A DNA stretch of 64,000 nt from Raillietiella orientalis (taxonomy: Eukaryota): the NCBI GenBank assembly GCA_036172245.1, contig JAYWIR010000009.1, positions 5,022,001-5,086,000 on the forward strand, given 5' to 3'. Numbering within the stretch: position 1 is the first letter of the stretch; every line of letters begins with the position of its first letter. Shown in pieces: positions 5,601-45,439 of the stretch. The notes below the pieces were generated by a model. It was given only the letters and a program-made list of their open reading frames with translations. It made no database searches and was not told the origin of the DNA. The position numbers were made by a program, and so were the translations under genes.

Positions 5601-5607
5601 TAACCAC

Positions 5608-16761: not shown

Positions 16762-16769
16762 TCTACTAA

Positions 16770-17113: not shown

Positions 17114-17149
17114 GATAAAAGTGAAAACAGGTAGTTACAATGTAACCTT

Positions 17150-18600: not shown

Positions 18601-18639
18601 AATCATAATCAACCCCCCTAATCCACCATACCCCAATTT

Positions 18640-19550: not shown

Positions 19551-19604
19551 GATATGCCTACATACAAATCTCCAGATCTCACTACCATCCACATAAACCC
19601 CTTG

Positions 19605-21115: not shown

Positions 21116-21129
21116 AAAATGCATGAACA

Positions 21130-23564: not shown

Positions 23565-24233
23565 TTGAAACCCGGTTGCGCCGGGACGTTTATTCTTTGG
23601 AATAAACCTCTATAATCTGTGACTGCATCAGTAGTCCAGCCACGCCCTAGAAACTTCCAGCCTGCAGGGCTACCTGTGCGCAGACCGGTGCGGTCGACCA
23701 CGGCAGCAGAGGGGAAGGGGAATGAAACAAAAGAAAACCAAAAAATAAACAAAACTGGGAGGAAACAGGAAGGGATCACAGTCTGCTGGGAGGCTCCGTC
23801 ATCCTCTGGAGGATGCCGGCAAGCTGTTGCTGCATGGTGGATTTCCGATGGGGCCATCGCGTCGTCATCCTCAGTAAGCGTGTACACCACCCGGGCGGTG
23901 TACACGGTGGCATCCCTGTAGCTGGATCCTCCCGTCGCTTTGATCCATGCCACGACGATCCTGCGTAGGCAGCACACGGCTGCAAGCGAGGACGCTGGAG
24001 GCAGGGCGTCTCGGACGAAGAGGGGGCGCAAAGCGTCTCTGGGATTGCCTCCGGGGATACCCAGGCAGCGGCAAAGCGTTCCCACAAGGGACGGAGGGCA
24101 ACACAATCCGCTAACAGGTTGGGGGGGTATTCCCTCTCCCAGCACCTGACACAATTGGGGTTGACATCCCCCCGCGTTCAGTGGTGTAGGTGGGCGTTGC
24201 AAGGGAGACCCCAATGCAACACCAAAAGTGCCG
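23565..24233 (-). mobile_element. 5'-truncated L1/Tx1 LINE with 13-bp TSD
   Basis: ORF2 end (LRPLFVRDALPPASSLAAVCCLR), 3' UTR and terminal hairpin. TGCTCGCTCTCAA is repeated at 23552-23564 and 24234-24246. Confidence 0.88.
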
Positions 24234-26733: not shown

Positions 26734-29717
26734 TGCAAGATTGCAGTGATCCGTGTGCTGCTGCTCCCTACCACTCGCCGCACCCCGTGGGTGCCTTCGG
26801 AAGGCCTAGGAAGAAAAAGTTCCCAAGCAACGTGTACAGATTGTCTGATCTGTCCACTCGAGTGGCGTTTCTCGGAAGGCTTCCCACTTTTGGCAGCCAT
26901 TACACTTGGCGGTTACGTGGACTGCGCAGAACCGACGTTGCGTGCTTCACGTGTTGAAGTGCTTTTGCCAGAGCAGGAGAATTTGCGGTCCCGTGGTCTT
27001 CATGGGAAGACGTGACGTCACACGCGCAAAATGAGGCATCTCTATGGTGTTGGCATGGCTTCCTTCTGGCAAGGAGACGGTTTCCCGCTTGAATGCCATG
27101 GATCCTTTGGCAGGAGGCCGCGAAGGTGCGGAGATGAGAAACAGACGAAGCGGCAGCATCCGTCCTTGGTTTTGTGCGCAGCTTCCCCAAGAGAATGAGG
27201 CACACGCTGACGGAGAACCGAAGTGGTCCAATCAGCATCCTCAGAGGCATCAGGAGGCGACGCGTTTGCGGCGCAGCATGTGAGAGGGTGTGGGTGGGGC
27301 AGTGTTGGTGGCGGTGCGGTGGTGGAGCGAAGTGCTTCTCTGCTGGAGGTGCACCATCGTTCTTGTGCCTGGAAAATTGAGTTAGAGAGAGAGAGACAGA
27401 GATGAGGTTCAACTGCCACTACGTAATCTCATCATGTTCCTCATTTTGAAACGAATCGGTAGGATCAGCAAGTGCGCTCTTACGCCATACTTGTTAATCC
27501 AACAATGCATATGCATTGTTTAGTTGGTTACCAAGGGGATCACTCGATTCGGTGCCTTTGATTCGTATCGCTGGAAAGACTGTGCTCCCAGGATAGGGTG
27601 TTTCAGTCTAGGAGTTTCATGCCACGGATTCGGTCACTTCTAACACATTTCTGGATGAGATGCGAGGTACAGGTAATCTTTTCCTCCGATCCTGCAATAA
27701 CCTTATCATGTATCTGAACATCATCGTCTTATTGTGATAGCTGCCCGAAAATACCAAAGCTTATGGGGTGTTCTGCAAGGTGCTTCAGAGTTTATCGTCC
27801 TTCGTGAAGTGCATAGATAATGGGATTCTAATAATTTCTAGCAGACTTTTTTTTTCTTCAGATTGTAGAGTTCATTTCATTTTTTTGCCACGTGGCAGGT
27901 TTTAGCCTTAGTTTGTAAAGGAATCATGCGTTACTACATTATATTTGAAATATGTATCTGTAAAATTATGAAGGCTGTGGTCACAAAAAATCCATGCAAA
28001 ATTCAGTGCAACGCAGAATTTTTGTGTGTTTTCATGAGACGGTAGTGAATGGTTGTTAATATTTTGAGGTCAGTAAAATAGTTTTTTTGCTGGTTTTCCG
28101 TTTTGTGGCTTCCAGATTGTTTCAGTGCATTTTGATAAAATCAAATATAGAAAAGAAATAAAATACCAAAACAATTAAGATTGCATTACCCGAAGATTTG
28201 GGAAAGCGAGAAATTCTCTTGATGTGGAGACTTTGTTCTTTCTTGAATAGAAAGGCCTTGCAGAGTTGGAAGTAGGGTTATACATAGTATTTAAACAGCA
28301 AATACAAATAGACAAGAGCAAAAAAAATAAGGTTAACATAATGGGAAAGTGAATTGCTTAGTTAACTCTATACAGACTGGGCACTAATGTGTTCTGTGAA
28401 ATTCTAATATGGAATTGGTGATATCGAGACTGCATTTTCAGTTTGAAAATTAAATATTCCTTATTGAAATTGATAACACTCAAGTTTTTCTATAAGTTAT
28501 GATTTTGATGATTTCTTTGATAATTGCATTGTTCTGATTCTGCTGTTTCCGCTTCTCTCTTGATAGTTTGAAAACAAGAGAGTAGTAGTAGAGTTTTCCA
28601 GGATTGCATCTTTCAGTCTGAGCATTTTTGCTGTGCTGTTAGTTTGGATTGGAGTGTGATGCACTGAAGTGTACTGTGACATTATTGCATGAAAAAAATT
28701 CCAAAATGCAACTGTGTTATTTATAAAAAATCTTGAAAATAGATTTAAAATATTCTTCGATTTATATTAAATCCCAAATATTTTTTATAACTTTTTATTC
28801 ATTTTTATTCATTCCTGATACTTGTTTAAATTATTCTCATGACTGCAGTTATTGAATGTTTGGAGCTAAATCAAAGTCTTTTGGTCTTAAAGTGGATTCT
28901 CTTTAATGTGATGTGTTATCCATCTTGATTTATAATTTTTCCTTTTTTGAGGTTTGTGACATATATTGCACTGAAAGTTGACTGTACATAAATTTCCATA
29001 CAGCAAAGCCAAAATTTTTCTTTTTTTCCTTTTTCTCTTTTTTTTTTCATTTTTGGAAATATGTTACCTACCAAACTCACTGAACTACAAATTCTTTTCT
29101 TTGTTAGTATCCTGTTTGTAGGGAATAATACAAGCCTTACAGGTGAGTGAGACAATTACAAGACTCCTGTGAGGCAGTATGGGATTACAAAAGAAAAGCA
29201 AATTTGATACGGTAGTGCAAAATAAAGCAAAAATTTCCTGGGATTTATTCTTTGGAGGATATCTGGTTCCATGGCTATTTCATGTGTGTGAAGGAACTTG
29301 CAACAGTGTTAGAGTCTACTACGAGTTGTTATTTTCCCTTTTTAAATGGCATTTGCACATGATTATTATATGTTAACTTGCTAGTGCTTACATCATCAAA
29401 TCTTGTCACTCTCAATCTTCTTAGCAACTCCGTGATGCACTTACATTGTGGAGCATCTGGTGACCACACTAAATTAAGTGGACATTCACGTTTGTGTGTG
29501 TGTGTGTTTTTCATACTCGTGATTTCTTTTATGGCCTGGTGATGTAGTTCTGTATAGTTGTCTTTACTTTCGTTGGATCAGTACTGAGCAGACTACTGAA
29601 ATGAGTATGTACTGCCTGACCGGGCATCTTATGTATTTTTTAGGCTTTCATTGATAGTTTTTTATCACACAAGACTTAGGAGACGAAGGAATGAAAGCCA
29701 AAGTCAGGAATCTTAAA

Positions 29718-30235
29718 ATGAGAACTTATTTTGAAGTGCTGAGGCAGCCTTCATGACATCTGATGAAAGAGTCCAATTTTTATCAAATATCCCCCATTTG
29801 CTAATGTAACTTATTCAATTGGGTATATAATTATTTGCTTGGCCAGCATCAGAATGGACACGGATCTTTGAAACTAGTTCTCTGTTAGGAGGAATTCTAT
29901 TAGGGCTTCCAGAACTGTTTGAGGTGGAACTGTTTGAGACAGGATATATGGACACATCTCACAAGTAAGCCAGGGAAAAGATAAAGACACTCTGGACAAG
30001 GTTATTGCATCTTTGCCTTTACCTGGATTACTCACTAACTTGTACACCCTAATCAACTTTTCTGTTTTCTTGAGTCCATTCTCACTTATTTTTTCTTTAA
30101 TATTATTCAAATTATTTCTTCTTTCAAGTGCTAACATAATCATTGTTAGTACATCTTCCCTCATGTTTTCGAGGGCAGATTCTGAAATTAAATGCCATAT
30201 TTTAATGGCCATCCTTTTGGTCTCGTTAGTTTATT
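29718..30235 (-). pseudogene. Phenuiviridae (phlebovirus-like) nucleocapsid EVE
   Basis: DVLTMIMLALERRNN...ISENG...LIRVYKLVSNPGKGKDAITLSRVSLSFPWLTC, matching phlebovirus N (MIVLALTRGN...YKL..GNP...TLSRV). Confidence 0.8.
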
Positions 30236-30239
30236 GGTC

Positions 30240-30925
30240 AACTTCGTCAAAAAAGGGGGACAATGTGCTGGTGGAGGAGGAGGCAGGAGATTGTGAATCT
30301 GGCTCTGGTCTTGGGCTTGAAGAGACAGTCCACGGGAGAATGTCTCCTTTTTTCCAGTCGGTTTTTTTGCTTAGGGAGGCGATGTTGTGGACGATCCATC
30401 TGTCGTTGGATAGTTTGGAGTAGTCGGGTTTTCATTTGACGAAGACTATTATGTGTGGTGGTTGGAAATATTTGATCGATCCTTGGTATTTTGAGTCGAA
30501 GATTATGCCATTTTTTAAGCTTTCTATAAAGCCGTACTGGACGTGCTCCTGGTTATCCTTGGTGAAGTCTACGACGATGATTCTTTCTCCATTGTAGATG
30601 TGTGCTGCATCGGCTTTTTTGCAGCTATGCATGTAAATGGCTGTCTTTTTTAAGAAATTTCGCCTTCGTTGTTTTCCCTGTGTTGCCAATGGTGTCGTAG
30701 TACCAGTGTATTTTCCTGTGGTTTGGTTGATGTCGGATGAGATCTAGAATGCGTAGTTGCCATTCTCTTAGCTGAAGGTTGGCGAGAGGATTGGGATGTG
30801 TTCTTGCTCTTGATAAGCGAAAGCATTCTTTAATAAAATTTATATTTTTGGCGTAGAAGTGGGTATGGTTTTTAAGTATGTAGAGTTCATCGGCTCCGTT
30901 TTCTATTAATTGTAGTATCTGAAAG
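30240..30925 (-). pseudogene. rep: CRESS Rep helicase half (EVE)
   Basis: LREWQ...RKIHWYYDTIGNTGKT (Walker A), IIVVD (Walker B), ESLKNGIIFDSKY, PPHIIVF, LSNDRW. Confidence 0.9.
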
Positions 30926-30929
30926 GAAA

Positions 30930-31143
30930 TGATGTAGAGATTAATAAAGTGTTTAGTAAGCTAACTTGTTCTTCGTATGATTTGGCTTCTTCTGCTTGTT
31001 CGGAGTTTGGGTTCAAATCCTTCATAGACAAAGTCATTAATATTTTGTCTAATGAAGTGTTATATTTTGTCGTCATTAAACACTTGAGTGAACTGGATTT
31101 CTCTAGTTATACGGTCTACATCTTCAATGCTTAGCTTTTCCAT
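30930..31143 (-). pseudogene. Phenuivirus-like nucleocapsid N-terminus (EVE)
   Basis: ATG at 31143 gives MEKLSIEDVDRITREIQF...NINDFVYEGFEP, resembling EFAYQGFD. Confidence 0.55.
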
Positions 31144-31249
31144 GGTGTAAATTTTTCTAAAATTCAGTTATATTAACTGAGAGGTTTTTGTGCTGCGAAA
31201 GAGAGGGGAGATCCTTTTGCATGTTCGAGTTCCGATCTTGTGAATGAGA

Positions 31250-31530
31250 GTCTTGGGAGTCTTGGCAACGTATTGGAGTGGGTGTCGAGGTCGACGATGA
31301 TCCATCGGTCATAGCCGAGTTCGGACAAATGAGGCTCCCAGTTTGCGAGTACGATGACATGGGGAGTGACGTAGTACTTAATGGAACCTTGGAATTTTGG
31401 GTCAAAGGGTATTCCGTTTTCAAGGGACTCGATGAACCCGTGAACGAGTTATTTAGCGTCCCTCGTGAAGTCGATGATGGTAGGTTCGCCGTTGTACAAG
31501 TGAGCGGCATCTGCTTTTTTCAGCACTGCA
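31250..31530 (-). pseudogene. rep: CRESS Rep C-terminal fragment (EVE)
   Basis: KKADAAHLYNGEPTIIDFTRD..GFIESLENGIPFDPKFQGSIKYYVTPHVIVLANWEP..DRWII. Confidence 0.85.
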
Positions 31531-31699
31531 TTCAGCCTTGATTAGATCTGGAAGCCTTCAAGGCTTCCAGACCTAATCGCTGGTGTAATGCGACCTCGTG
31601 GGGGAATTAGATAAGTCGGATGGACGACGCCCACCAGCTGTGTAGTCTGAAGGGGTGAGGGGATATGGAAAAAATGGCAGTAGGCTGTCAACCAGCCGA

Positions 31700-31864
31700 A
31701 TGGCAGCTCCTACGCGAGTTCGCTTTCTCAAGCGGAAGTCTGGAGGTGTTTTGTATGCAGCAAAGAGACGTCGGTTAGGTTTGCGAGGTTATAGTACGTT
31801 TAAGAGAAGGCGAAGGTATAATGTAAAGCGTCGTAGTTTGAGGATCTACCGAAATCCGTGGTGA
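31700..31864 (+). pseudogene. cap: CRESS capsid Arg-rich N-terminus (EVE)
   Basis: MAAPTRVRFLKRK...KRRRLGLRGYSTFKRRRRYNVKRRSLRIYRNP. Confidence 0.6.
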
Positions 31865-31876
31865 AGTATGGAAAAG

Positions 31877-32696
31877 TCAAAAGGACTCACTCTGTATTGA
31901 ACTTCCAAATAGCTGCCCTGACTGTTGATTCACCATCATCGCGCTTAAGAAAGCGTCAATGGAAGCAAAGTCTGGGTGGAAGGAGACCACTGTACTTGAA
32001 CTAACGCTGATGATCGCGTTAACCGTCTTCTCCATAGATTGCCGAGCACTCACTAGCCATGAGGGCGTACCGTTCACGAGAGAACTCTGAGTCCCAGTTC
32101 GTATAACGTCCCGCAATTCTAGGACCTTTACAAACCTAGCAAAGTTTCGCAGGTCCTGGCTTTTCGGATGTCGGGCGTCTTCCTGATCCTTATCTGTCAA
32201 AGGATCTTCGGGTCGAGGAAAGACTGTGCTACGGCCTTGATTCATTGTCACCACGCCGTAGATGTTTATGATAGTAGCTACACACATGGGCATCGTGTAT
32301 TCGGTAAAGAAGGGGATGCGGCTTGGTACTCTTATACCAGTGTATTTCTGATACACCGTCTGCAGCCTGCAAATATAAAGCTCTCTGCATACAAGCAGAA
32401 ACTTTTCACGGCTTATTAGTTCGCTGTATATTGAGCCACCTTCGTACATAACACTGACAAGAGTGTCATAAACGATTGAAAAGAATGGTTGAGCATTCGA
32501 CCACAATGGGACAATCTCTTCTGAGATTCCAATCGGGTTCGGGCCAATCAATTGCTTGGCGGCCTTTTCAATATAATCACTCTCGTGCTTTAGGCACTGA
32601 ATATGAGGTCACTCTAGAGGTGGTGCGTAAGGCGTGGGTCCTGATGCTTCTGCGTCTGGCTCCTCGCTTGTTCGCTGCTATTGCAGTCTGTTCCAT
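31877..32696 (-). pseudogene. Partiti-like dsRNA virus capsid protein EVE
   Basis: 224-aa open frame (CRELYICRLQTVY..YTGIRVPSRI...MPMCVATIINIYG) that resembles arthropod partiti-like capsids as I recall them. Upstream ATG at 32696. Confidence 0.5.
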
Positions 32697-32832
32697 CTCC
32701 ATCAGGGATTATCACTATGGATAATAATTATTAAACCGTTAACCTTTATATTCGGTCATATTAATAAGAATCTTAAGTTGGGCCGTGCTAATATCGCATA
32801 TAAGCTCGCACAATTGGCACCTTACTACCTAA

Positions 32833-33660
32833 CTAGGGAGCATTCGCTCCTAAGTTTCTGGTCTTAAATTCTTTGGAATATAGAGGAACGCAGGATGCGC
32901 TCCTTTTATTCTCCAGATCAGCCAACAAATGGAACGCAGCCTTAACCTCATCTTCGGAGAAATCCTCCCCCATTCTCTTCCGTTGGAGGTCATCCGTCTT
33001 TTTTCCTAAGTGTCTCATGAAGACATTCTGATTTGAAAGGCACAATTGTTGACCTTGGAAGTGTCCCGTGTAAATGCCTTTGAAAGGCATCCACGATGTC
33101 TTCTTCCGTTGTTTGTCGACGATAGCCGCCATATTGGATGCAGAAGATATCCGTTGCTAGATTCTTCTTTTCCAGTACACCGACTTCCCCTTGAACATTT
33201 CGGAAGACGTACCGACTCTCGTACTGTTCGTAGTACCTTGAGAGTGAGTGATCTTGGGTGTTTAGCTCTCGGTACGCCTCCTGCCTCAACCTCTTATCCC
33301 CGAATTGCATATTGCAGAATGAATGGACCCTATACTTCACGATATGCCAGTCGGCAACTCAGCGGATAGTGACATCTCGAAGAATCGCCTCGATGACTTC
33401 CTGGTGGCATGGAAGCGTCTCGAACCAGGCGGGCATGCAGACCTGGTAGCCTTATTTCGCCGAGAATTCTCCGCTCGGAGGGAGAACCACACCAACGGGT
33501 GATCGGACAGGAAATTTCTCATGTCAGGAAATACTTGTATGAGGTTCTCGATTTCCGAACTGTGCAGGACATGGTCGATCAGCTTGCGGCTAGCTGTTCT
33601 CCACTGAAGTCCGAAATCATCGGACAGCTGCCGATACGCCGTCCTACCTCTAGGGTTCTG
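32833..33660 (-). pseudogene. Orthomyxovirus-like nucleoprotein fragment (EVE)
   Basis: Across frameshifts it reads VCMPAWF...EAYRELNTQDHSL...VQGEVGVLE, in the order of NP motifs (SCLPA / FRLLQNSQVYSL / EDLRVL). The match is weak. Confidence 0.35.
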
Positions 33661-33664
33661 GGAT

Positions 33665-34085
33665 TTGGCCCGTGATATATCGAGCGCCGATACGGTGATG
33701 TATCGAGATTAGCATGATATTAGCATAAGCCTCTCCAAGGAATGCCATGTTCTCGATTGATGGGCAATTTGCGGTCTGTGTCCAGTCAAGTAGTCTCTTA
33801 AAAGCTTGGTAAGCTACTTGGTAAGGTCCCCAATTTAGGAGTCTTTTGAAGGCCTGATACGCCACAGCATGGCGATGTGTACGTAGTGCAATCTCAATAA
33901 GTGCATCTTGTGACACAGTGATGGGCTTGGGAGGATCACCTATTGTTCCTAGACCAACTGATCTCATTATGGCAAGAAACCCAGCAAGTTCCAGGACACG
34001 CAGTGTACTGCAAAAGTGCCCCAGGGTGTGCGCAATGTCTATACCCTTTTCCTCGGGTACTGCAACTTGCGACGCATTTTGCGTC
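33665..34085 (-). pseudogene. Second qinvirus-like nucleoprotein EVE, chimeric between two strains
   Basis: IAHTLGHFCST..THRHAVAYQAFKRLL..CP..IGARYITG aligns with 3399-4570 (LAHQMEHYIST..THRHTVGFQAFRKL..CP..QAKYLTG). Confidence 0.7.
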
Positions 34086-34089
34086 TCAG

Positions 34090-34749
34090 CGTACGGTTGA
34101 TGGGGATTATGTAAATTGTTCGTTCATGTTTTCGTATGTGGAACATGTGGATAGTTTGGCGAATTTATCGAAATCTTTGAATTTGGAGCAATACGCGAGA
34201 TATGATCTTTATGTGAAGTCGAAGGGCTGCGCAACAAAGGTGGAGCCATTGTCTCTTGGTTTGACTATTGGAAACATGACTGAAGAGTTCGGAATGAAAG
34301 TGTCGTATAGGAATATGTTGTTGTATCAGCCTGCGGCGCAGGGAGAGCATTTTGGTTCAATGCGGGGTTATGCCTATGAACATATACTGAGTAGAATAGC
34401 GGGACTTGAGGAAACTTCAGGATGTTTGTGTCGTTATTTTATAGTGCGTGGTATAAGGTTGTATTCGAAAGGATACGTGTTGAAGAAAGTTAGTGTCGAT
34501 GGTGTAATATTGGATCGATGTGCAAAATGTCCGTGGGTGGATTGTGGGGAGGCTGGTGGACTAGATCCGCCTCGGATAGGTTTTGGTCGTATGCATGTTG
34601 TAAAGCATATTCCGGGTGATCTGAAAAATGGTTGTTCGAGTGGTGTGTTACCAAAGCAAGGGACAATGATGAAAGGTTATCCTATATTTAGAGTAACGAG
34701 AAAGTTTTATGTGGTATTTAAACATCTGAGAGATGTCTGGTTGTACTAA
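34090..34749 (+). pseudogene. cap: CRESS capsid C-terminal ~220 aa (EVE, frame open)
   Basis: PWVD...FRVTRKFYVVFKHL end, followed by AATAAA, converging on the Rep stop at 34830. Confidence 0.65.
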
Positions 34750-34829
34750 TGAAAATAAATATGATATAAAAAATGCTTTTATCGATTGACTTTATCATAT
34801 GAGGTGGAGGGTGGTGATAGGGTGGATAT

Positions 34830-35385
34830 TCAAGAGGAAGAAGGCGAGTCAGGGGCTTCTGTTCTAGAGCTTGAAGAAGAAGGCCATGGGAGAATGGTTC
34901 CTTCTTTAGAAAGTTGCCAACTTGTCTTCTTGCTAAGTGTGGACGAACCAATGTTGTGTACAATCCATCTGTCTGTTGAAAGTTTGTAGAAATCTGGTTC
35001 CCAATTAGCGAAAACGATTATATGTGGAGGCTGAAAATATTTTAAGCTTCCTTGATACTTGGAATCGAATATGATTCCGTTTTTTAAACTTTCTATGAAG
35101 CCGTATTGTACGTGTTCCATGTTTGTCGTAAAATCAACTGCGATGATGCGCTCTCCATTATATAGGTGTGCGGCATCTGCTTTCTTGCAGGAATGCATAT
35201 AGATTGCTTTTTTTTTCAGGAATGGAAGAGGAATTTTGCCATTGTAGTTTTGCCAGTGTATCGTAGTACCAATGGATTTTTCGGTTGCTGGGTTTGTGGC
35301 GGATGATATCCAAGATGTCCATTTGCCATTGTTTGAGTCGAGGTCCTGCGATTGGGTTGGGGTGTTGACGCGTGCGTGACAAGTG
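34830..35385 (-). pseudogene. rep: CRESS Rep helicase half (EVE)
   Basis: LKQWQ..RKIHWYYD..IIAVD..ESLKNGIIFDSKYQGSLKYFQPPHIIVFANWEPDFYKLSTDRW. Confidence 0.9.
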
Positions 35386-35797
35386 GAAGTCTTTTTAATA
35401 TCCTCAGAATTAAGTTCTATGAAATTTGGCTGAACCCCAGAATTTCTAAATGCTTCAGTAAAGTTTCGATTCTTGTGACAGTAAGATTGTCCTAAAATAT
35501 TAGCAATTATATTCCAATAAGCTCCTAACTATATGACTTTATTCGAGTGAATTGGGTCATCCGGGTAAAATCTAGATAATGTTTTAGCCAACCCTGCTCC
35601 TCTCCCTTTAACAGAGGTAACTTCATTAGAAACTAAATAAATATCTATAACTGGTCTATCTAATTCTAATAATGGTGTAGATGTTCCTACATGAGATCAT
35701 GAACCAGTAGTCTTGCTAATCCCTTTAAATGACCAGTAGTTTGAGGGATATTTAGTCCTTCTATTTGCATTTTCTAGAAAGATTACTCATTTTAACT

Positions 35798-36501
35798 TTA
35801 TAGGGATACAATGCCCAAATCAGATAAATGTACCATAGGATTGTTAAATCCATAAGAATGTAATTCACATATCTTAGCAGGATATACAGCTATTATCCTA
35901 GGTAAAGTGATGGTAGATCCTTTTATGGCTGCGCCGGGCTTCCTAATGGCTATGTCAATATTGCATTTTTGACATAGCCAACCCAATACTGTCTGTATTT
36001 CTAGTGAACTTTTGTCACTAATCTTTACAATTGATGAGCCACGGGTTGCAAATAGAGATAGAAGTTCAATATCGGTAATAATATCTTCCTTATTACTATA
36101 TACAATTTCCATCTCTTCTCCATTAATCATAGTTTTCCAACTGACTGATCCAGTTGTCCATGAGTTTTATAATCTTGTTCATTCTTAATCATTAAAGCCC
36201 CAATTCTAATAGGGTCAAATCCTTGATACCTCATCATATCTGTGAGGATCTGCAGCCTACCATTGTCTAGGATTTTCTTTCTATCAATAACATCTTGAGG
36301 AAAATCCTGAATGTAGGCCTCATTCTTGTTCTTAAGAAATCCAATAAATCTATCCCAATAATGGTACACATTGGGATCAGGAATATGGTTCACTCTCTGA
36401 ATGTGTCCAACTGGACGACTAGGTCCAGGCTTGGGATCCTCAATATCCTCATTAGGTGTGCCTGTGCGACTTCTCTTCCCACCTTGTGCACCACCTGCCA
36501 T
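35798..36501 (-). pseudogene. Bunyavirus (Tenui_N/phenuivirus-like) nucleocapsid EVE, N-terminal two thirds
   Basis: MRYQGFDP...LFATRGSSIVKISDKS...ITLPRIIAVYP, with one frameshift near 36128. Confidence 0.7.
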
Positions 36502-36559
36502 TCCTGATATACTAAGAATAAAAGGTTATATAGAATATTAAAGTTAAAACATTTTCTTC

Positions 36560-36790
36560 TTAATGTAAGAGCCATTTGAAGGTCAGGGGAACAGTGGGAT
36601 TTTCTTCGAACAGCATCCATCAGGGTTTGAAGGGCGAGGGAGGAGATAGTACCATCGGAACAACAAGGAAGTTTGAAAGCCGACTCAATTAACATGATAC
36701 GAGCTTCTTCAGAAAGGGCCATAACTCCAAGACAGCCATACAGATATTCGGTGGACGAGGCTTGGGTAAGGGGAAAAATGTGTTGCGAAA
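36560..36790 (-). mobile_element. Utopia/NeSL-like RLE non-LTR retrotransposon fragment (post-RT region)
   Basis: LPQASSTEYLYGCLGVMALSEEARIMLIESAFKL. Confidence 0.6.
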
Positions 36791-36804
36791 ATCATTTTTT
36801 CTAA

Positions 36805-37350
36805 TTTCGACCTTTCGGGCATCTACGGAAGAGATGTCCGGATGCAACGTGCTTAACCTGCGGCGAAAAGGGCCACACTAGCGTTGTGTGCCCTAAGAAC
36901 GTCGCTACACCGCCAGAGAACCCGGAAAATAAAAAGGGGGAGAAGGCGGAAGAAAAAAATAAAAATAAACAAGCAGAGGACCAACTACCAGCTAAAAAGG
37001 CAGTCGTACAGCCTAGCACGGAATCGCAAGAAACGATTCCTCAATAGGCAGTCGACGAGGGTGGATGGAAGCTGGTTCCAATCAAAATCAAAACCCCCAA
37101 AAAGAAAACTCGAAAATTCCGAATAGATCCACGAAGCCGAAGGTGAAATCTTCGCCGCGCGATGCTAAGAAGGAATAACGCGTTACGATGGAGCGCGTGC
37201 CGTCTATGGAACTTCAAGCAGCCGCTCAAGGCTGTCAAGAAGGCTGTGAGGCGGCCGGCGGAAGCCAAAGGCCCGGAAACATCCGACTCCGAAGCGGAAG
37301 TCGGAAGCGCTCCCTCCATCGCCCTCCCGAAAAGGAAGCCGGGACGGAAT
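36805..37350 (+). mobile_element. L1/Tx1 ORF1 fragment with zinc knuckle
   Basis: GHLRKRC..CLTCGEKGHTSVVC. KKAVRRPAEAKGPETSDSEAE matches the ORF1 ends at 59221-59661 and 63524-63898. Confidence 0.8.
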
Positions 37351-37359
37351 AATAAGCCA

Positions 37360-38040
37360 CTGAGTGGACAACCTTGCTTAAAACCAGCGTTGATTTGGAC
37401 AGGATCGGAAAGTCATGTTGCAGTGCACATGCGGGTGGTAGATCCATCGTACATATTGATTATGGAGAGGAATTCATCGCCAATCCCAAAGTGTCCTAGT
37501 GAGGAAAGGATAAGGGCGTGAGGGACAGAAGAGAAGGCGTCTTTGAAATCAAGGCAACAGATGCAAAGGTTCTGGTGATGCACCCTAGCGCGTTGCAGTA
37601 GAGAAGAAAGTTCTGTTCTAAAGCACCGTCATAGGGTAAAAAATCTTTTTTGATAGGGATCAAGGAGAATCCAAGAGCGCAGTCTTCTGGCGAGAATTTT
37701 AGAATACATTCTCCAGGGGAGGAATGGGAAGACTTGCCAATGGAGGAGTGGGATTTTGAGGAAGAGATCCCTTTTGGGGTATCGGATTCAGCGGAATGGG
37801 ATTAACAGTGGAGGGGGGTCTACTAATTGCTGGAGGAGACACACTGGAAGGATTGAAGGTTGGAGAAGGATGATGAAACTGATTGGGAACAGTCACCCTT
37901 AGGGACTGGGATACTTAATTTTGCCGTAGAGGCTTCTGGACATTTGAGGTGCTTGGAGAGGACATTTCGTATATCTTTCTTATACTGTCTAGGAGTCAAA
38001 ATAGATATGTACCTTTGCAAATCACAAACCTATTTCGAGA
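37360..38040 (-). mobile_element. Utopia/NeSL-like RT N-terminal fragment
   Basis: YSKILARRL..QK.FLPYDG..LDFKDAFSSVPH..INAGFKQG. Confidence 0.75.
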
Positions 38041-38048
38041 GAAGAGAC

Positions 38049-39539
38049 TTATATTCTTCCCACGAGCTCGCGTGCTTGCTCTGACAACTGACCACACGGA
38101 ATCATTTCTTTCAGGCTTCCGTAACTAATTGGCCGCACTTCACCTGAAAACCTGAAACAGTTTCCAGCTTCCAGGTCTTTGGCAACACTCGCGGATAACG
38201 TGGACTCCTTCTGGAGTGCACTGCCCCCGTTTCCCTGGTTGTGAACAACCGTGGGCGCATTGTCAACAAAGACCTCGCCTTTAAACTCTCTCACCGCAGC
38301 ATTCGCTGCCTTAGCTATCCGATAATAATCTTTAGGAGGGGGGGCCTGTGATGCTATCAATCGCAGCTGCATAAACGTCTGCGTATAAGCATTACGCAAA
38401 ATCTCTGCAGGTCTTCCAGGTCCTCCAACAATCCGATAACTGCCACAAGAACCGGACCCATCATAGCAGATTTCAGCGGGAAGCACCCAAGCTGCGACAG
38501 GCGGCTTAATAGACACTGGAGCAGCTTCCAGGGCCACTTCAGTAGCATACTTAACACGACTACGCAACTCTTCAGCAACCAGATTTCCCCTTCTCGATTC
38601 ATATGCGTCCTTATCAGGTGCATACCAACCCCGACTGCTCAGATTAGAAGACAAACGACTATAACTCTCTTCAACCTCTTGGTCCAAGATCTTGTCAAAT
38701 TCATCCTACTCCCGACGTTGCTTCTGCACCTTCTTTCGAAGATCCTCCTTTCCATGGAGACCTGCCAAAACAAAATTTTCCTTCTTTACCTGGCGCAATT
38801 TAAGTCCTTTGACACGAAAAGAACGAGGGAGCTGGACGAGTTCCATCACATCTTCCATGTGATAATCGGTCTCGACCAGCTCATGAAGTTCTAAGGGTTT
38901 CATCTCTGAATCCTCAAACCAAACTTCGTTTTCCACCGATGCCTGAACCAAAGTGGCGGAAACTCCGTAATTTTTCTCGGCTGACATAGAAGCTAAGTGC
39001 ATCCCAACTATCAACCTGTCTCGGAGGTAATAAACCGCTCCGGAAAACCCAGGTTGGGTTGAACCGCAGTAACCAAGATAGCCAAGGTCATTCTACCCAA
39101 CTATCTTAGCTGAAGAAGCCATGCCACGAACACTAATCATGGCATGAGTCGAATCTCCTGTGACTTTCTCTGACTTAACAGGAAAATCATTAATTTGACC
39201 AGGCATAGCGAAAATAGCAACATCATCTGCAATAATCCTAATGTCCGTAGGTGTAAACCCCTTCCCGGACTCGGTCGCTCTGGTTGCCAATTTGCCTGCA
39301 AATTGGGAACCAGGAATCATTATAACATGTCTTGGAGCGACTAACCACTTCCCAAGCCAAAAACCACAACCAAGGAACCTATTACCAGAATAAAAATAAA
39401 ACTGGCAACTAGGATCCCGTGGAGATCGGACAAAAGCAGAGCCTGGAATAGCACACTCAGGAATAACTAACTGAGCATCCTCAAACCCTGCCACCTCAAT
39501 TTTGTCTCTCTGTTCACGAAATTCTCTAAAATCTCGCAA
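38049..39539 (-). pseudogene. Sobemo-like (Solemoviridae/Sobelivirales) polyprotein EVE: serine protease, VPg and downstream region
   Basis: One frame of ~497 codons broken only by TAGs at 39093 and 38706. Protease motifs: LGCGF..APRHV, DDVAI, GSTQPGFSGAVY, IVGMH. Confidence 0.75.
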
Positions 39540-39639
39540 TCAATTCCAAAGAGTCAAGAATTTCCGGTGACACCGAAGTACTATCGTAGCAACAAACATC
39601 AACGTTGATCCGATAGAACATCCTAAGCCCGCCCACATA

Positions 39640-40095
39640 CCGCCCGTATGTCGGATGTCTCAAAACCAAAGAGGCGTTTCGTAAAGTAGGAAAATTCGTT
39701 AAACGAAGGCGGAAAGTATACATGAGGCTCATTAAGTATAAGCGAAGGCGTGTTAAATATCGAGACGTTGAGCTGGAAGTTAAGTTATTTGAGAAGAACT
39801 GTAGAGCTTACTATGACGTGCAAACACTATTCGAGCATAAGGATGGCGAATTCGGGATTAGTCAACACGTCTCGGATGTTTGGTTACAAGGAGTTTCGTG
39901 GTTCCATTTGGGACGTCATGCAAAGCGCAAATGTGGTGCAATATTGGTCCTTATTTCCAATATGTGAAAGTAAGGTGTGGCCATTGGAGGAAGTATTTCG
40001 GCGTGAAAGCAGTTCGATTCTTCTCGCGAAGTTATGTGAGATATCAGATACGACTTAGGGAGAATGCGACGAGGTACGAGGTTTGGATGTTGGAC
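39640..40095 (+). pseudogene. cap: CRESS capsid N-terminal fragment (EVE)
   Basis: Basic tract RKVGKFVKRRRKVYMRLIKYKRRRVKYR, then SYLRRTV..SIWDV..QYWSLF; abuts a Rep tail. Confidence 0.5.
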
Positions 40096-40100
40096 CAAGT

Positions 40101-40245
40101 CTACTTGACAAGGCTTCTTCGATTCTCCCTTGGATCAGTGGTCCAAGGGAGAATTGACCCATCTTCATCCATGGTCCACTGTGTTTTCTTACGAAATCGT
40201 GGGTTGTCGAGGTCTATAATAACCCAGCGATCTTGTGAGGACAAT
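40101..40245 (-). pseudogene. rep: CRESS Rep extreme C-terminus (EVE)
   Basis: SQDRWVIID..KKTQWTMDEDGSILPW matches STDRWIVH..KKTSWQLSKEGTILPW at 34830-35198. Confidence 0.7.
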
Positions 40246-40674
40246 GGCTGGCTAAGAGCAGCTTGATCTCTTAAAAGATCTGCCTGTGCTGCAGCATGCC
40301 TGTGTGTGCCTGAAGTGAAGAGTGCGTACACTCTGTTGATCATGAAGATTAGCGCAGCATCCTTCCAGGCCTTAGTGTGGTAAATCCACCCTACTGCTGA
40401 TGCTGTTACATTCTTAATCGTGATCCTTGCGTCAGTTGGCTAATACAGCGATAATTTCCTGTCTTCTGAAAGTGCAATATCGGTTCCGGTCGTAAGTCCG
40501 ACTTTTCTATTGCCATCCAGATTTGGCAACATGCAGAAAATCTGTCATAGCTGGTTTCTGCCTCTTGTTCAGCCTGGTCTGCCATAACACTGCTAACTTT
40601 ATACAGCCAATATACTTAGCTTTCAAACTAGGTGTTGTATTTTTCACAATGCGTGTTAACTGTAGGTTTAAGGG

Positions 40675-41445
40675 ATCCCAAGTACCAAGCGTCCCCACAA
40701 CAATTGCATCATTAAGGACCTGAAGGCCTTGGGATTCAAGAAACTTTTGTAATGGACGATATTTATCTTGTTTACTTTCCCTGGCCGATTTGAAAGATTG
40801 AATGCGATTTTCGTGCGGTTAGTCGAGAATTAAGGCATGAGAGGAATCTCGAAGGAAAACATCAGGGCGTAAGGCGGAGTGAGTATCAGGGATGCAACGA
40901 TTGCTGGAGGAGATCGGCCAGAGAGGGAGCAAAGAATCTTTAAATAACTCTAAGATGGCGTTATGCCTAGAGTATATCAAGGTGCCAAGATGAGTAGGAC
41001 AATGAGAAAGAACGTGTGCTAAGGTCTCTTTGGGGTAAGGACATTTCTGGCATTGTTCATTGAATCCTGGTCTTTTTCGGTTGCCATTTAGAATTGACTG
41101 GTTGAGCCGGGCATGATGGATGAATCGCCAATCGGCAAATCGAAGAAAAGCGGCATCGTAAAGAAAACTCATGGATGCTGGGTGACGCATAATGCAATCC
41201 AACGATCGACCTTGGTCGGGTTCCAGAAGTAAGGAAGAGATTTCTTGATCTCTAAGGAGAGAACGAATCGATTTTGCTATTTGTCTTCTCGAAGAGGAGA
41301 ATAAGATTTTAAAGTTTTCCGAGTTATTGCTCGTGAGCCTAAGAACGATTTGATCTTCCACAAAATCCCACGAAACAGGTAAAAATTTAGCAAGAGAGCG
41401 ACAGCGGGACCAAAATATTTTCGGATCGCCACTGTTTATCAAGGG
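40675..41445 (-). mobile_element. Utopia/NeSL-like CCHC finger and restriction-like endonuclease fragment
   Basis: RFADWRFIHHARLN, CQKC..ETLAHVLSHC, RHN, LRPD, ENR, K..KY, VGTLGTWDP. Confidence 0.85.
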
Positions 41446-41714
41446 GAGGGAGGGTGGAACCGTTTGTTAGTCATGTGTGTGCATATAGCTGGAGGGCAAC
41501 CCACCCTTCCTTGCATTTTTATCGCGTTCCGTACTGGGGTTCAGTGGTCAATCGGTTCAGTTTCCATTGTTGAAGTATTTTGCATTGCATAGAATCTGTT
41601 GTTATCAATGTCTTGGATTCTACGCAAGGTAATCCAGGACCGCTGGTAGATTTACCTCCATGTGTCGGGAGGCACTGGGAGCCTCCACGGGATCACCAGC
41701 TTAGGTCGACAAGC

Positions 41715-41965
41715 ACCCATCTGTCTTGGTGGTTTTCCCGGCATTCCCTCTGCTGTCCTTGTGCCAGTAAATGTTTCTATCGTGTGGATCTTTTCGAAGC
41801 AGTTCAAGCAGATCCATTTGCCAGCTGCGTAGGATCGTCATCTTGTCAAAGAGGGTACTCTTTGTGGATATCCTACCACTTTCATTTAACCGCGCTTGCA
41901 GGTGCTCGTCGAGGAAGGCATGGTCTGTTGACTTCAAGTCGCCTTCTGCTTGATCTAAGATGTTG
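41715..41965 (-). pseudogene. rep: CRESS Rep central fragment (Walker A)
   Basis: LRSWQMDLLELLRKDPHDRNIYWHKDSRGNAGKTT. Confidence 0.8.
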
Positions 41966-41969
41966 ACCG

Positions 41970-42438
41970 CGTGTATCACGCCATTGTGCGCATAATGCGT
42001 CCCCACTGTGTTTGCTTCGCGCGAGTTGCACATGAAAGTCCCTCGCGACCAGGTGGGCTGTATCTGCATTTGGTCGTTCCCACCTGTTCTCCTTCAGGTC
42101 TCGGAGAAATGCAGTCGTTCCGGTGACTGGCATGTTTGTGGTAGGGGCGTAGATATTGGTAACCCTGAGGTCGATGTTGTCTGACCATTTTAATTTTGAT
42201 TGCTTAATTCTGCCCTTATCATCAAATCTCGTCAAATCTCAAGCCCAGGGTACGCAACATCTTGGGCTTCAGCAGCAATTCCACTCTTGTGTGGAGAGCC
42301 CCATTCCTCCAAAACATTTCCGACCCAGTAATCCTTTCGATTTCGCGCGCCATCTCTTGGGATACCAGGTGTAACTCCTGGAGGAGCACTACGTCAAAGG
42401 ATTGCAGGGCGGTCGCGATAGCAGGTCTTGCGGCTCTC
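41970..42438 (-). mobile_element. L1/Tx1 APE endonuclease fragment
   Basis: FDVVLLQE..LKWSDNIDLRVTNIYAP..HLVARDF. Confidence 0.8.
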
Positions 42439-42732
42439 GGATAGAGAGCCGCAAGACCTGCTTCACAGTCCAGACGGCTATCTCGAGTTTCTTCATAGAG
42501 CGTTCCATGCTCGTTTCTGTTGAACGTTCTGTCAATTGCGCTACTTGTTGGGCACTGGCCCGGACCTGATCTCCATCTCCTCGCAGTTAATTGCCGTTGA
42601 TGGCTGCCTCGGGTTGTACTTCAGCTCGTTTTCGCGCCTTCGAGTGCCTCCCACTTACTATGAAAGATTCCTATGTCGAGCAGCGGGTTCTGCATGGCTT
42701 CCCTGCACAGGTTCGTTATTTCGAACTTGGGA

Positions 42733-42805
42733 GAGCCAATCAGAGGCGTTTCTGAACGCGCAGACCAATCAGTGCGCTTGAAAGGGGCGCCGAGTTTCCC
42801 GCGCG
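42733..42805 (+). promoter_or_regulatory. Promoter-like cluster: two CCAAT boxes and an E2F-like site
   Basis: AGCCAATCAG (CCAAT at 42736) and GACCAATCAG (42765), 29 bp apart; TTTCCCGC at 42795. Confidence 0.35.
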
Positions 42806-43214
42806 TGAAGTAAAAAAACAAAGAATTTTTTTTTTTCCAGTCTTTTGAGGCACTGAGGCCATCTGTTGCACCTGCAACCGATTGTGGTTTGTTGCCACAG
42901 TTGTGCATATTTGCGACACAAGATTTTTCCACCGGTTCCTCTTACCTTCCCTTCATGTCTACTTTCTGGCTGCCGCCATGGCAGCAAATATGCAGGAGAC
43001 AATTCTCGCCCACAGCAACCAAAGTTGTGTTGGCACACGGTCCATACATGGTGAGGATGTCCACGAGGTCATGGGATCGAAACTACTCGAAAAACCACAA
43101 GCTGTCACAACACACAAAAAAGAGAATTTCGCCTGCTAGCGGTAACTTTTCGAGAGCTCACGGAGGCACGACCGCACTGAAGATCATGAGTCAGACGGAA
43201 GGAAAAACATTTTC

Positions 43215-43420
43215 AGGGATTACATTTTCAACACCCCTCTGCCAAGGGAAAAGTTGGAAGTCTGTAATGGCTTTCAGTTTATCCATGAAGCTTGGAAATT
43301 CTGAGCGGTAGGACAGTGGGTCAAAACCTACAGGTTTCCCTAAATATCTGTACGTTTTGTTGGTTTGTAACGAGTGGACGGTTTCGCCGTACATTAAGTG
43401 CGAAGAGCTTGGGGAGGGAA
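43215..43420 (-). mobile_element. Utopia/NeSL-like RT fragment
   Basis: YRYLGKPVGF...LFPWQR. Confidence 0.65.
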
Positions 43421-43789
43421 GGCGACGTAGTGGAAGGAATCACAAATCACAATATTACATGTTCGTATATATTTTTCATTAGTGGCCCCACTAATGAAGA
43501 ATATGATCCAACACAGCTAGACAGCAATTTCTGACAGACATGTTCCCAGGGAACCCTCAACTCCTGCTTTGAAACACCAAAGATTGCTCGATTGCTGCCA
43601 CTGGGTTCCTCCTATGCAGCTGAAAATTGCAGACAATCCCCATTTTCCAATTCCTTGTAGTGGGAGACACCATAATCTGGCAGTACACTAGGCAAGCAAT
43701 CAACCGAGCGCACCCAAGAGCACTTCCCCATTGCAAACATTGCAGCTGCCTGGAATTTGGAATAGTGGACAGTAAATACAACTGTTTCA

Positions 43790-45439
43790 TTTAGGACAGG
43801 TCATCACCATACTCATGACAGCAAAGACGTTAATTCTCAGTGGATTCGAAAAATAAAAGGCAAGTTGGTTGGCGTCGGAGAAAAGCATTCTGCCAAAATA
43901 GCAATCAAATGGTAATACTCTCTCATATAATATGTTACAAATTCGCATTGTAAGCCTGGCCTTCAGCACACATCGAATGGTCCCACTTGCTGGCATCACC
44001 AGTCAAAATCAAACCTTTATCTTTGCGACAGCAGGCGTCATATAAAATCTCTCCCACGTCAAAAATCGGAGTACCCGCTGTACTATTTGGGAATAATTTT
44101 TGTTGAAAATGCGTATCAACAAAAGTGCCAAGAACCATCCAATCAACGATCAACTGAAATAAGATATCAAAGTGGATCTGGGATATTTCTCTTCATCCGG
44201 ATCATTGGTTATTCTACCTTTTGCGCTGTCACATAGTACTCTTCCACACTTTGTCAATAACCTCTGAAACATACTTTGGGGTGTCAGGATCAGCAATGCA
44301 AGTCTCCATGTCTGGCCATTTATCAAACAGCCCTGAAACCCCTTTCATATTTATTTTTGTGAGAACCTCATCCCAACTATAAGGTCTCAGTGTCTTCCGA
44401 AATTGCATTTTTTTTAGATAAGGTAACAACTTTCTCAATTCTTAAAGTGTTCCTCTCCTAATACTTACACAAGGCTCATCAACTCTTGTGAAGATAGCCT
44501 CTAAAAGACTTTCATTCGATTTCCCAGTCCTTTTAACTACCGAATTAGTGTAATTTCAATCATACATTCCTCTAATGTACTCCTGCAAACGTTAATTTCT
44601 AAGATCTCGATCGCCCCAGTATGCATCTTCCGATGGAAGAAAAATAAAAATTTCTGATACATAAAGGCGACAGTTTTTTTACAACTAATATTCCTAATGT
44701 TATATCTTTCAATAATCTTTTTAACTCTATCTAGTGTTTCAAATTCATATTGATTCCTAATGATTCACCATAATTCGCTTGATTAGTGAATTCATCAACG
44801 CTTGATCAATAATTTGCGTCATTTGTAATCTATGTATCATAACATACTGCAAGGTTTTTTTGACCTTTCGCCGATTGTGCAGGAAATTGCTTTTACTCAT
44901 TTCTGTGTAGTGGAAGTCATCGTGATAACCAACTATAAATTTATAATCTCCATTGGTACACGCGGAAGGTACAACACAGATCACATCTTTACATTTCAAA
45001 TTAACTTCCCTTTCTTTACAGACGTAGACATTAAGACACGCTTGACTCTTACTATAATTGTCATGTACCACAATGTCTACCTGCTCATTTGGGTGTCCCA
45101 CAATAACCCGGTAACTGCGTAAAGAGTACCACGACAAACTCCAACTAAAGGAGTAAATATTCTCTTGATCTCATGTCAAAGTCGCATAACTCCATTATCG
45201 TTTTCACCAGCTTTATCGTAGTCATAAACGCACATGCCTCCAACAAAACTACCTAATAATTTAATGATGTTGGGAATACTTGGTACTGCATTAAATACAT
45301 CGTCTCGATTACGCCAATATAACCCACAAGCATCCACCAAAATGCTAGAGGAGGCCAACCAAACTGGCATACCTGCTGAAACAAAAAAATCCTCCTCGAT
45401 ACATGCCGCATCATATGTATCTTCATATACCATTTGTAA
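43790..45439 (-). pseudogene. Flavi-like (pesti-like/large-genome flavivirus) polyprotein EVE including RdRp motifs
   Basis: AIFTRVDEP, PYSWDEVLTKINMKGVSGLFD, GTPIFDVG and LTGDASKWDHSM (motif A). Disrupted by stops and frameshifts and cut at 45440 by a LINE. Confidence 0.6.

Follow-up and report, generated by a model that had tools for sequence, protein, structure and literature searches.

How a stretch of a genome comes to consist almost entirely of fragments of viruses and retrotransposons, packed together with virtually no host sequence between them, is the question raised by a locus within the 64,000-nt window of Raillietiella orientalis DNA analysed here (the window being this whole stretch). 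The first-pass annotation had placed an ultra-dense core of about 25 foreign fragments at 29700..45439, and these boundaries are accurate. On the left, the stop codon of a phenui-like nucleocapsid (N) gene (29713-29715) is followed by a 3′ hairpin that extends to ~29640 and by an AT-rich tract (GC 0.305 at 28-29 kb), and, on the right, the flanking LINE ends (3′) at ~45438. The mosaic therefore occupies positions 29,640-45,438, almost without gaps, with unassigned sequence totalling ~2 kb in pieces of at most 340 nt. It contains 12-14 dead virus fragments interleaved with five non-LTR retrotransposon fragments, and at least four, probably at least six, virus groups are represented. The explanation we favour, with a probability of roughly 0.55, is that foreign nucleic acid has accumulated over at least 45 kb of a LINE-rich, arthropod-type genome, and that the core is the densest portion of this dump, a trap resembling a uni-strand piRNA cluster that would have grown by end joining of linear DNA.

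The near-gapless mosaic is as first described, but a figure of ~25 is too high as a count of independent events, since some single elements have been split by insertions nested within them. The leftmost fragments, originally listed as phenui N, Rep and phenui N, are a single near full-length N gene on the minus strand (29640..31190; Pfam, PDB and DNA reading) that is split by a nested insert, CRESS fragment A (30232..31004, minus strand). The N gene begins with the ATG at 31143. Its middle part (29877-30230) matches Pfam Tenui_N (E 2e-17), and all 12 of its PDB matches are phlebovirus N proteins (best 9e-10); query residue 15 aligns with chain residue 40, and this part begins at about residue 32-40 of the solved proteins. 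Immediately 5′ of the insert there is an ATG-led piece of 46 codons (31005-31143) that, read by eye from the DNA alone, appears to be the N-terminal part of N; PDB and Pfam searches gave no match for it. CRESS fragment A, recognised by Rep similarity and sequence reading, corresponds to the 3′ two-thirds of a Rep gene, from the Walker-A helicase region through the stop codon and a following AATAAA, and is 78% identical over 126 aa (tblastn/blastp, E 8e-58) to the Rep in fragment C.

Internal tblastn searches identified five Rep pieces from CRESS-DNA viruses in the core, all on the minus strand and all lacking the Rep endonuclease domain. They have no Pfam or PDB match, and their assignment to Cressdnaviricota follows from an SF3 helicase with Walker A, from related copies accompanied by a convergent cap, and from the Atlas placement of Rep C in Cressdnaviricota Rep/helicase clusters (score 0.95, 210 of 256 features shared). 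Fragment B (31176..31880) has a Rep C-terminal part (31176-31541, E 3e-27), a foldback palindrome (31540-31578) and, on the plus strand at ~31700-31880, a cap-like Arg-rich N-terminus seen by eye only. In fragment C (34070..35528), a 5′-truncated cap (plus strand, to 34746) is convergent with the 5′-truncated Rep (34833-35528), and this cap has weak similarity (E 5e-4) to a second cap. Fragment E (39620..40260) combines a cap with an Arg-rich N-terminus (plus strand, ~39620-40100) with the last ~40 codons of Rep, truncated at a foldback (40119-40157) and recognised by similarity of its tail (E 7e-6) and by frame reading. Only the Walker-A region remains in fragment D (41710..41900; blastp/tblastn to Rep A, E 4e-10; frame reading), and it continues in frame into an L1 piece. 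The identity of the three cap pieces comes from their Arg-rich N-termini and their position convergent with Rep. Rep and cap sequences are frameshifted. In pairwise comparisons the Rep copies are 34-49% identical at third codon positions versus 57-84% at positions 1 and 2, and differences concentrated at third positions establish separate captures of related viruses. Self-BLAST found only one nucleotide-level repeat pair (69%) within the core.

The remaining virus-like pieces, all on the minus strand, differ widely in how far they can be named. A 1.5-kb piece (38052..39539), a single frame of 496 codons with 2 stops and a foldback at 39280-39313, is a sobemo-like protease-VPg region: HMMER gave 125 matches at E<=1e-3, the best at 1.4e-26, relatives with a name are annotated as sobemo/solemo/sobeli-like VP1 or serine proteases, and Trypsin_2, Trypsin or Peptidase_S39 is present in 4 of the 28 top matches. 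The 1.9-kb piece at 43560..45437, one frame of 537 codons with 22 stops, has RdRp-like motifs A and C by eye, and 8 of its 9 PDB matches are pestivirus NS5B at E ~0.6; further searches gave no match, and the sequence points, weakly, to a flavi-like RdRp. The fragment first labelled a partiti CP (31880..32608) is open for 243 codons and has a single homologue, P0002 (295 aa; 72% identity, E 1.4e-109), on contigs no longer than 1.2 kb; family searches of its product gave no family and its AF2 model was unusable. A candidate N/NP-like ORF series (32836..34123) includes two diverged copies joined at 33782-33865 with a 12-residue overlap, and 9 of the 10 duplicated residues are encoded by codons with different third bases. 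These ORFs have no Pfam or PDB match; a 20-nt tandem duplication is also present at ~33671-33708. The same searches gave no match for a two-frame ORF pair with a Met start (35801..36525), originally called a bunya N, that contains a foldback at 35947-35980.

The only reverse transcriptase (RT) fragment in the core (37332..37900, minus strand) is that of an R2-like, RLE-type non-LTR element and ends after motif B; five R2 chains in the PDB match it at E 1e-10 to 2.5e-10, as against 5e-6 for L1 ORF2p, and Pfam RVT_1 at E 5e-5. A C-terminal zinc-finger and restriction-like-endonuclease region (40510..41466, minus strand) has three PDB matches, all R2 proteins (E 0.005-0.047) aligned at their C-termini, and the two pieces may derive from more than one element. 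Both had been labelled Utopia, and the RT, C-terminal zinc finger and RLE are present as in that clade, with the match reaching the level of R2-like LINEs only. Utopia elements insert in U2 snRNA genes; no Rfam family, U2 snRNA included, reaches its gathering score in the entire window. A further Utopia label, at ~36.6-37.0 kb, reads instead as a LINE ORF1-like CCHC piece (36631..37350), which is the sole plus-strand fragment and is in one frame throughout; a CCHC knuckle region (zf-CCHC, E 7e-4) is followed by homology to the pre-APE region of flanking L1-like LINEs (blastp to 59224-59742, minus strand, E 4e-14). On the minus strand, an L1/Tx1-like APE endonuclease fragment (41860..42620; tblastn to the flanking L1 ORF2, E 8e-25) carries an internal, perfect 19-bp foldback (42420-42462), and the adjacent 42624..43439, one frame with 4 stops, no Pfam match and a foldback (43469-43504) on its 5′ side, is a candidate LINE post-RT ('thumb' or linker) piece by frame reading. 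No LTR-element family (rve, RVP, RNase H, gag, LTR-type RT) was matched at E<=0.01 by any of the 128 ORFs that reach 60 aa, nor was one matched by any of 54 six-frame read-throughs of the nine gaps, and self-BLAST revealed no LTR-sized direct repeats. The claim that no LTR element is recognisable in the core is thus borne out, including by the HMM search for LTR remnants that it called for. Among the 24 fragment labels of the first-pass annotation, 11 are confirmed by tools at class level (phenui N, Rep five times, sobemo, two Utopia and two L1). Those of flavi, three caps, the second N piece and the LINE at 42624-43439 stand on weak matches or reading by eye, and no tool assigned a family to the partiti CP, orthomyxo-like NP, qin N or bunya N.

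The minus strand carries 16 of the 17 mapped fragments (two-sided binomial p ~3e-4) and also the LINE adjoining the core. Uni-strand piRNA clusters share this one orientation and also a content of decayed, truncated and nested sequences of mixed origin, represented here by stop codons, frameshifts and the CRESS-split N gene. This decay also bears on whether the mosaic could be an assembly artefact, in which reads from contaminating viruses and repeats were falsely chained. Assemblers do err where density is high, spacers are absent and flanks are repeat-rich, but the 22 stops of the flavi-like piece and the frameshifts of Rep and cap mark the fragments as decayed, truncation and nesting are unlike the product of exogenous virus reads, and we consider an artefact very improbable.

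Foldbacks, defined as at least 14 paired bases with a loop of at most 6 nt, mark the core. There are six (31540-31578, 35947-35980, 39280-39313, 40119-40157, 42420-42462 and 43469-43504), whereas shuffled sequence had 0.05 on average and never more than 1 (60 shuffles), and six of the nine foldbacks of the window fall within the 24.6% of its length that the core represents (p ~0.009). Comparison with homologues shows that three (39280-39313, 40119-40157 and 42420-42462) are inverted templated duplications, the insert being an inverted copy of directly adjacent sequence; the other three lack a reference from which the copied arm could be told. At 42420-42462, protein and DNA alignments show that a 10-nt net insertion creates the palindrome, and the sobemo-like piece has a 9-residue insertion at its palindrome relative to P0003. 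Foldbacks do not identify the enzyme responsible, because replication template switching or RT snap-back also produce them. Outside the core, the window contains a 6.2-kb mitochondrial insert (NUMT; 15.7-22 kb) with cox3-nad3-nad5-nad4-cob-nad1; a second mitochondrial piece, atp6-cox3, is also present in the window outside the core. NUMTs insert at double-strand breaks via end joining, and here mitochondrial segments share the window with virus fragments but, as a difference, lie beyond the core itself. Taken together, the CRESS pieces with convergent cap and Rep, the nearby NUMT and the six foldbacks suggest that ends were joined at the DNA level, with accompanying snap-back synthesis, and so lend indirect support to the break repair first proposed. 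Short inverted copies of adjacent sequence that create or lengthen an inverted repeat at a break are likewise features of the snap-back synthesis-dependent microhomology-mediated end joining (SD-MMEJ) model (PMC5728401) and of polymerase-theta templated insertions (PMC4912351, PMC5068794). The arms in the core are, however, 16-19 nt, as compared with a 9-nt inverted primer repeat, often only partly used, in the available text of PMC5728401, whose authors suggest that a repeat as long as 9 nt may be disfavoured.

LINE reverse transcriptase was the other half of the original proposal. R2-like or L1-like RT could have used viral RNAs as templates, either at a chromosomal target that had been nicked or by jumping between LINE and virus templates, leaving the virus pieces as by-products of LINE integration, perhaps at LINE-targeted sites. 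Non-LTR elements are the only ones present, a Rep piece is in frame with an L1 APE piece, and the N gene, which corresponds to one transcript, is a near full-length copy that begins near its own 5′ end. No spacer separates the 3′ end of the adjoining LINE from the flavi-like piece, and this junction counts against the explanation we favour, as RT template jumping also fits it. Non-retroviral EVEs made by LINEs, of the processed-pseudogene type exemplified by the bornavirus-like N elements of mammals, are defined by a poly(A) tail and a target-site duplication. The core resembles them in its mRNA-like N copy and in having LINEs as the sole RT source in sight, but differs in that a search for the two hallmarks revealed no such tail and no duplication above chance level. 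None of the four A or T runs of at least 8 nt in 29-46 kb is at a fragment end and no LINE-type 3′ tail is present; the only candidate duplication, at the Rep insert in N, the sole insert examined for this feature, is a 9-nt repeat that agrees at 7 of its 9 positions, of which about one is expected by chance by estimate. The two-gene convergent CRESS fragments C and E, and the NUMT, could not have been made from one mRNA, and the window has no Rfam target gene, whether for U2 snRNA or another RNA. A role for LINE RT as direct integrator, by target-primed reverse transcription (TPRT), is not supported, and we view LINE-driven capture as an unlikely account of the locus, the strongest of the alternatives weighed here.

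Somewhat less probable still is a secondary condensation, in which separate insertions were spread over a wider region and deletions and ectopic recombination later removed the host spacer. Density would then record DNA loss rather than a capture hotspot, and the foldback and duplication scars would have been left by the deletions and recombination. The foldbacks found where CRESS fragments B and E have lost internal sequence, the two N-like copies joined with a 12-residue overlap and the 20-nt tandem duplication are all consistent with this, and the available text of PMC5497376 proposes that ectopic recombination acted in Aedes clusters. Rep A is, however, cleanly nested in a still complete N gene, which favours insertion into an earlier insertion, and spacer loss alone does not account for 16 of 17 fragments sharing one orientation.

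Known loci provide parallels for the cluster-like trap that we favour. Aedes aegypti EVE cluster 38 is described as a 'flamenco-like' uni-strand piRNA cluster with demonstrated piRNA output (Aguiar et al. 2020, PMC7161354), and co-oriented EVE clusters are reported there to produce antisense piRNAs. As far as that account goes, cluster 38 and the core are alike in being repeat-rich, with virus and TE fragments from several virus families, decayed and nearly all on one coding strand. They differ in density, with 17 EVEs and 73 TEs in ~143 kb (0.12 EVE per kb) in Aedes versus ~12-14 viral fragments in 15.8 kb (~0.8 per kb) here; in their retrotransposons, gypsy being 59% of the cluster TEs reported for Aedes, whereas the core has LINE pieces only and none of the Ty3/gypsy or Pao-Bel genes or LTRs that stand beside EVEs in Aedes LTR/EVE hybrids; and in the ssDNA (CRESS) virus pieces and neighbouring NUMT, which set the core apart from the cluster as described. 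The premise that LTR elements are the usual EVE partners, taken from mosquitoes, gained no support. For the NIRVS of Ixodes scapularis, the reported partners are non-LTR retrotransposons (L1, I, R1) rather than LTR elements (Russo et al. 2019, PMC6580184), and so the association documented here is not a newly discovered route. According to the available text of that study, Ixodes integrations are preferentially within piRNA clusters, and the hotspot DS826508 has several virus groups and 0% LTR. That hotspot covers ~75 kb and has RNA-virus integrations; the core is far denser and has CRESS-DNA pieces mixed in, and it has junction scars, of which the available text for Ixodes describes none.

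We suggest that the trap grew as short linear DNAs were repeatedly inserted into earlier insertions. These were likely cDNAs of viruses and of LINEs together with DNA of CRESS viruses, and mitochondrial DNA was captured nearby. Error-prone end joining would have pasted them in, with broken ends undergoing snap-back synthesis, and the RT for the RNA viruses probably came from resident LINEs. The locus most probably operates in the manner of a uni-strand piRNA cluster, a putative function in which transcription of the plus strand would generate RNA antisense to every captured gene. In its dense packing and nearly uniform orientation, the core is similar to loci that act as small-RNA 'memory' in mosquitoes and ticks, and it may serve R. 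orientalis in a similar way.

The core, a near-gapless mosaic in which 17 virus and LINE fragments were mapped (29,640-45,438), is bounded by an AT-rich tract (GC 0.305, 28-29 kb) and by a LINE 3′ end (~45438). The right 18 kb of the window (46-64 kb) has a GC content of 0.58-0.67 and is a nest of L1/Tx1-like LINEs that carry APE, RVT_1 and zf-RVT domains. The 3′ end of this flanking family (45438-45480, 58290-58330) lacks poly(A) and has a short GC hairpin followed by a few fixed bases, where two copies part exactly. The left part of the window contains LINE scraps, further Rep-like pieces and mitochondrial DNA. CRESS Rep-like pieces are located outside the core at 2280-2606 (minus strand) and 8306-9033 (plus strand), with a weak N-like match at 3711-3878 (minus strand), and the cluster thus extends across the greater part of the window's left half. 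Not everything in this extension is on the minus strand. The mitochondrial DNA forms a nuclear mitochondrial insert (NUMT) of ~6.2 kb (15700-21960) with cox3, nad3, nad5, nad4, cob and nad1, read in the invertebrate mitochondrial code, and a second, atp6-cox3 NUMT at 5293-5945. The open frames of the larger NUMT are long (349 codons for cob), its genes lie in the ancestral arthropod order, and ARAGORN, in bacterial mode, found no tRNA in it.

The phenui-like nucleoprotein (N) label is confirmed by a Pfam match to Tenui_N (29877-30230, E 2e-17) and by the PDB matches of the same piece, all 12 of which are phlebovirus nucleoproteins (best 9e-10). The first-pass annotation had listed N, Rep, N as successive fragments; the two N pieces are one N gene split by a CRESS Rep insert. 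An ATG-led N piece of 46 codons (31005-31143) precedes the insert, a Rep 3′ fragment of ~770 nt with its end just past the stop and AATAAA, and N then restarts at about residue 32-40 of the solved N proteins and continues to its stop and 3′ hairpin. No tool independently supports the N-terminal piece, and a PDB sequence search with the N-terminal 48 residues returned nothing useful. The N copy begins, ~47 nt upstream of the ATG (31180-31195, minus strand), with a short motif similar to the conserved terminus of phlebovirus segments, which suggests that the copy extends to the RNA 5′ end.

Five minus-strand Rep pieces belong to a single family in internal BLAST comparisons, and the Atlas placed the largest among Cressdnaviricota Rep/helicase clusters (0.95), confirming the Rep labels; Pfam and PDB searches with that piece gave no match. 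Third codon positions are 34-49% identical between Rep copies, versus 57-84% at first and second positions, which rules out duplication of one insertion and indicates separate captures of viruses that had already diverged. Parts of both convergent genes are present in CRESS fragment C (34070-35528) and again in fragment E (39620-40260), and the two therefore entered as DNA, like the NUMT. The labels of the three putative cap pieces rest on their Arg-rich N-termini and position opposite Rep; the AlphaFold model of a cap piece was too poor for a fold search (pLDDT 29).

The sobemo-like piece (38052-39539) keeps one frame for 496 codons, interrupted by two stops, and a full HMMER search matched it to 125 proteins at E≤1e-3 (best 1.4e-26). 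Trypsin, Trypsin_2 or Peptidase_S39 is present in four of the 28 best matches, and the named clusters, three of the nine looked up, are VP1 or serine proteases of sobemo-, solemo- or sobeli-like viruses; the HMMER matches and these clusters together bear out the label. The flavi-like piece (43560-45437) likewise keeps to one frame, and the 537 codons counted (43560-45170) include 22 stops. Its label is weakly supported, by RdRp-like motifs A and C recognized by eye, with database support only from eight pestivirus NS5B chains at E ~0.6. Neither read-through had a match in the word-indexed protein search, and Pfam recognized nothing in three frames each of 43.4-45.5 kb and 42.5-43.8 kb.

Four further labels, 'partiti CP', 'orthomyxo-like NP', 'qin N' and 'bunya N', were not confirmed by Pfam, PDB, protein or Atlas searches. 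Pfam, at E up to 10, assigned none of 20 ORFs to a viral family, and PDB sequence searches returned nothing useful for Rep C (the Rep part of fragment C), 35801-36166, 32993-33358, the N-terminal part of the sobemo-like protease or 44760-45170. The 243-codon ORF labelled 'partiti CP' (31880-32608, minus strand) has one homologue in the word-indexed protein search, P0002, which is 72% identical. This complete-looking protein of 295 residues is encoded on contigs of ≤1.2 kb in public read assemblies and carries no name or family. The ORF and P0002 may represent a protein of an undescribed virus. The Atlas did not recognize the ORF (best score 0.85, recognition 1246), and the AlphaFold model of P0002 was too poor for a fold search (pLDDT 38). 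Relatives of this ORF, of the sobemo-like piece, of cap and of the Rep alignment were absent from the viral and metagenome contigs scanned. Two copies of an N-like segment of 10-12 residues follow each other head to tail without a change of frame (33782-33865), with a 12-residue overlap in which nine of ten identical residues have different third bases, so that the halves derive from diverged virus strains. Close by, the N-like reading frame is shifted by a ~20-nt tandem duplication (33671-33708), which encodes a four-residue motif twice, in two frames.

Two of the pieces labelled 'Utopia' are R2-like RLE LINEs and can be placed no closer than that: the RT fragment (37332-37787) scores better against R2 enzymes (E 1e-10) than against L1 ORF2p (5e-6), and 40822-41466 aligns to the zinc-finger/RLE end of R2 proteins. 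Neither U2 snRNA nor any other Rfam family was found in the window. The L1-like pieces (41860-42620, 37044-37350) were verified by BLAST and alignment to the flanking L1s. The absence of LTR elements, reported from the sequence alone, also holds: none of 128 ORFs of ≥60 aa matches an LTR-type family, self-BLAST revealed no LTR-like direct repeats, and the nine core gaps (~2 kb in all, each ≤340 nt) gave no match in 54 read-through frames. A weak CCHC knuckle (36805-37044) shares its plus-strand frame with sequence homologous to the 5′ part of the L1s in the flank, and is read as LINE ORF1, not gag.

All but one of the 17 core fragments, and the adjoining LINE, are on the minus strand. LINE RT, which had been proposed to take part in capture, is not supported as the direct integrator, as signs of poly(A)-type retroposition are absent, with no A/T run of ≥8 at any fragment end. 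The single candidate target duplication, 9 nt at the Rep insert in N, was rejected; its 7/9 agreement is at chance level, about one such match being expected, and the PDB alignment leaves the N breakpoint uncertain by ~4-9 residues. The core contains six foldbacks, palindromes with ≥14 paired bases and a loop of ≤6 nt; in 60 dinucleotide shuffles the mean was 0.05 and no shuffle had more than 1. These are six of the nine foldbacks in the window, in a quarter of its length; the remaining three (13967-13997, 23877-23908, 55247-55283) include one within a LINE piece and another within the LINE nest. Comparison with homologues was informative at three sites. At 39280-39313, the sobemo-like piece has a 9-residue insertion whose codons are an inverted copy of those that follow; at 40119-40157, Rep breaks off at a conserved motif and gives way to an inverted copy of itself; and at 42420-42462, a perfect 19-bp palindrome has arisen from a weak inverted repeat in L1 APE through a 10-nt net insertion. 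When aligned with three L1 copies, this last palindrome proves to lie inside the L1 fragment and not at a fragment boundary. The other three core foldbacks are at or near fragment joins or within an unverified ORF.

The three homologue-checked foldbacks are what snap-back synthesis at a DNA break is expected to leave, as modelled in PMC5728401, and the earlier suggestion of break repair is indirectly supported. We tentatively propose, with a probability of roughly 0.3, that the core is a recurrently broken hotspot into which free DNA ends were pasted by polymerase-theta-type snap-back end joining, with no retrotransposon integrase or endonuclease. The ends captured would include viral cDNA, ssDNA-virus DNA, LINE cDNA and mitochondrial DNA.

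EVE clusters in Aedes, as described in PMC7161354 and PMC5497376, have one orientation, give rise to antisense piRNAs and are rich in gypsy and Pao elements. In Ixodes scapularis, integrations are associated with non-LTR elements and one hotspot is without LTR elements, according to PMC6580184, so that an LTR-free partnership was already known. What stands out in the core is its density (~0.8 viral fragments per kb, compared with 0.12 in Aedes cluster 38), the mixture of viruses with ssDNA and RNA genomes and a NUMT nearby, and the repair scars. For the entry of non-retroviral viruses into arthropod germlines, and their pile-up in small-RNA source loci, the debate still relies mostly on mosquito data, in which LTR retrotransposons are implicated. 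The core is a compact counter-example, with pieces of RNA viruses and of ssDNA viruses abutting LINE scraps along a single strand, mitochondrial DNA nearby, no LTR element, at least one clean nested insertion, and repair scars that can be scored. If such scars are specific to clusters of this kind, the capture mechanism becomes testable genome-wide and, if the proposed snap-back capture is correct, foldbacks of 16-19 nt would be a readable signature of the way in which virus fragments reach the small-RNA memory loci of arthropods with LINE-dominated genomes.
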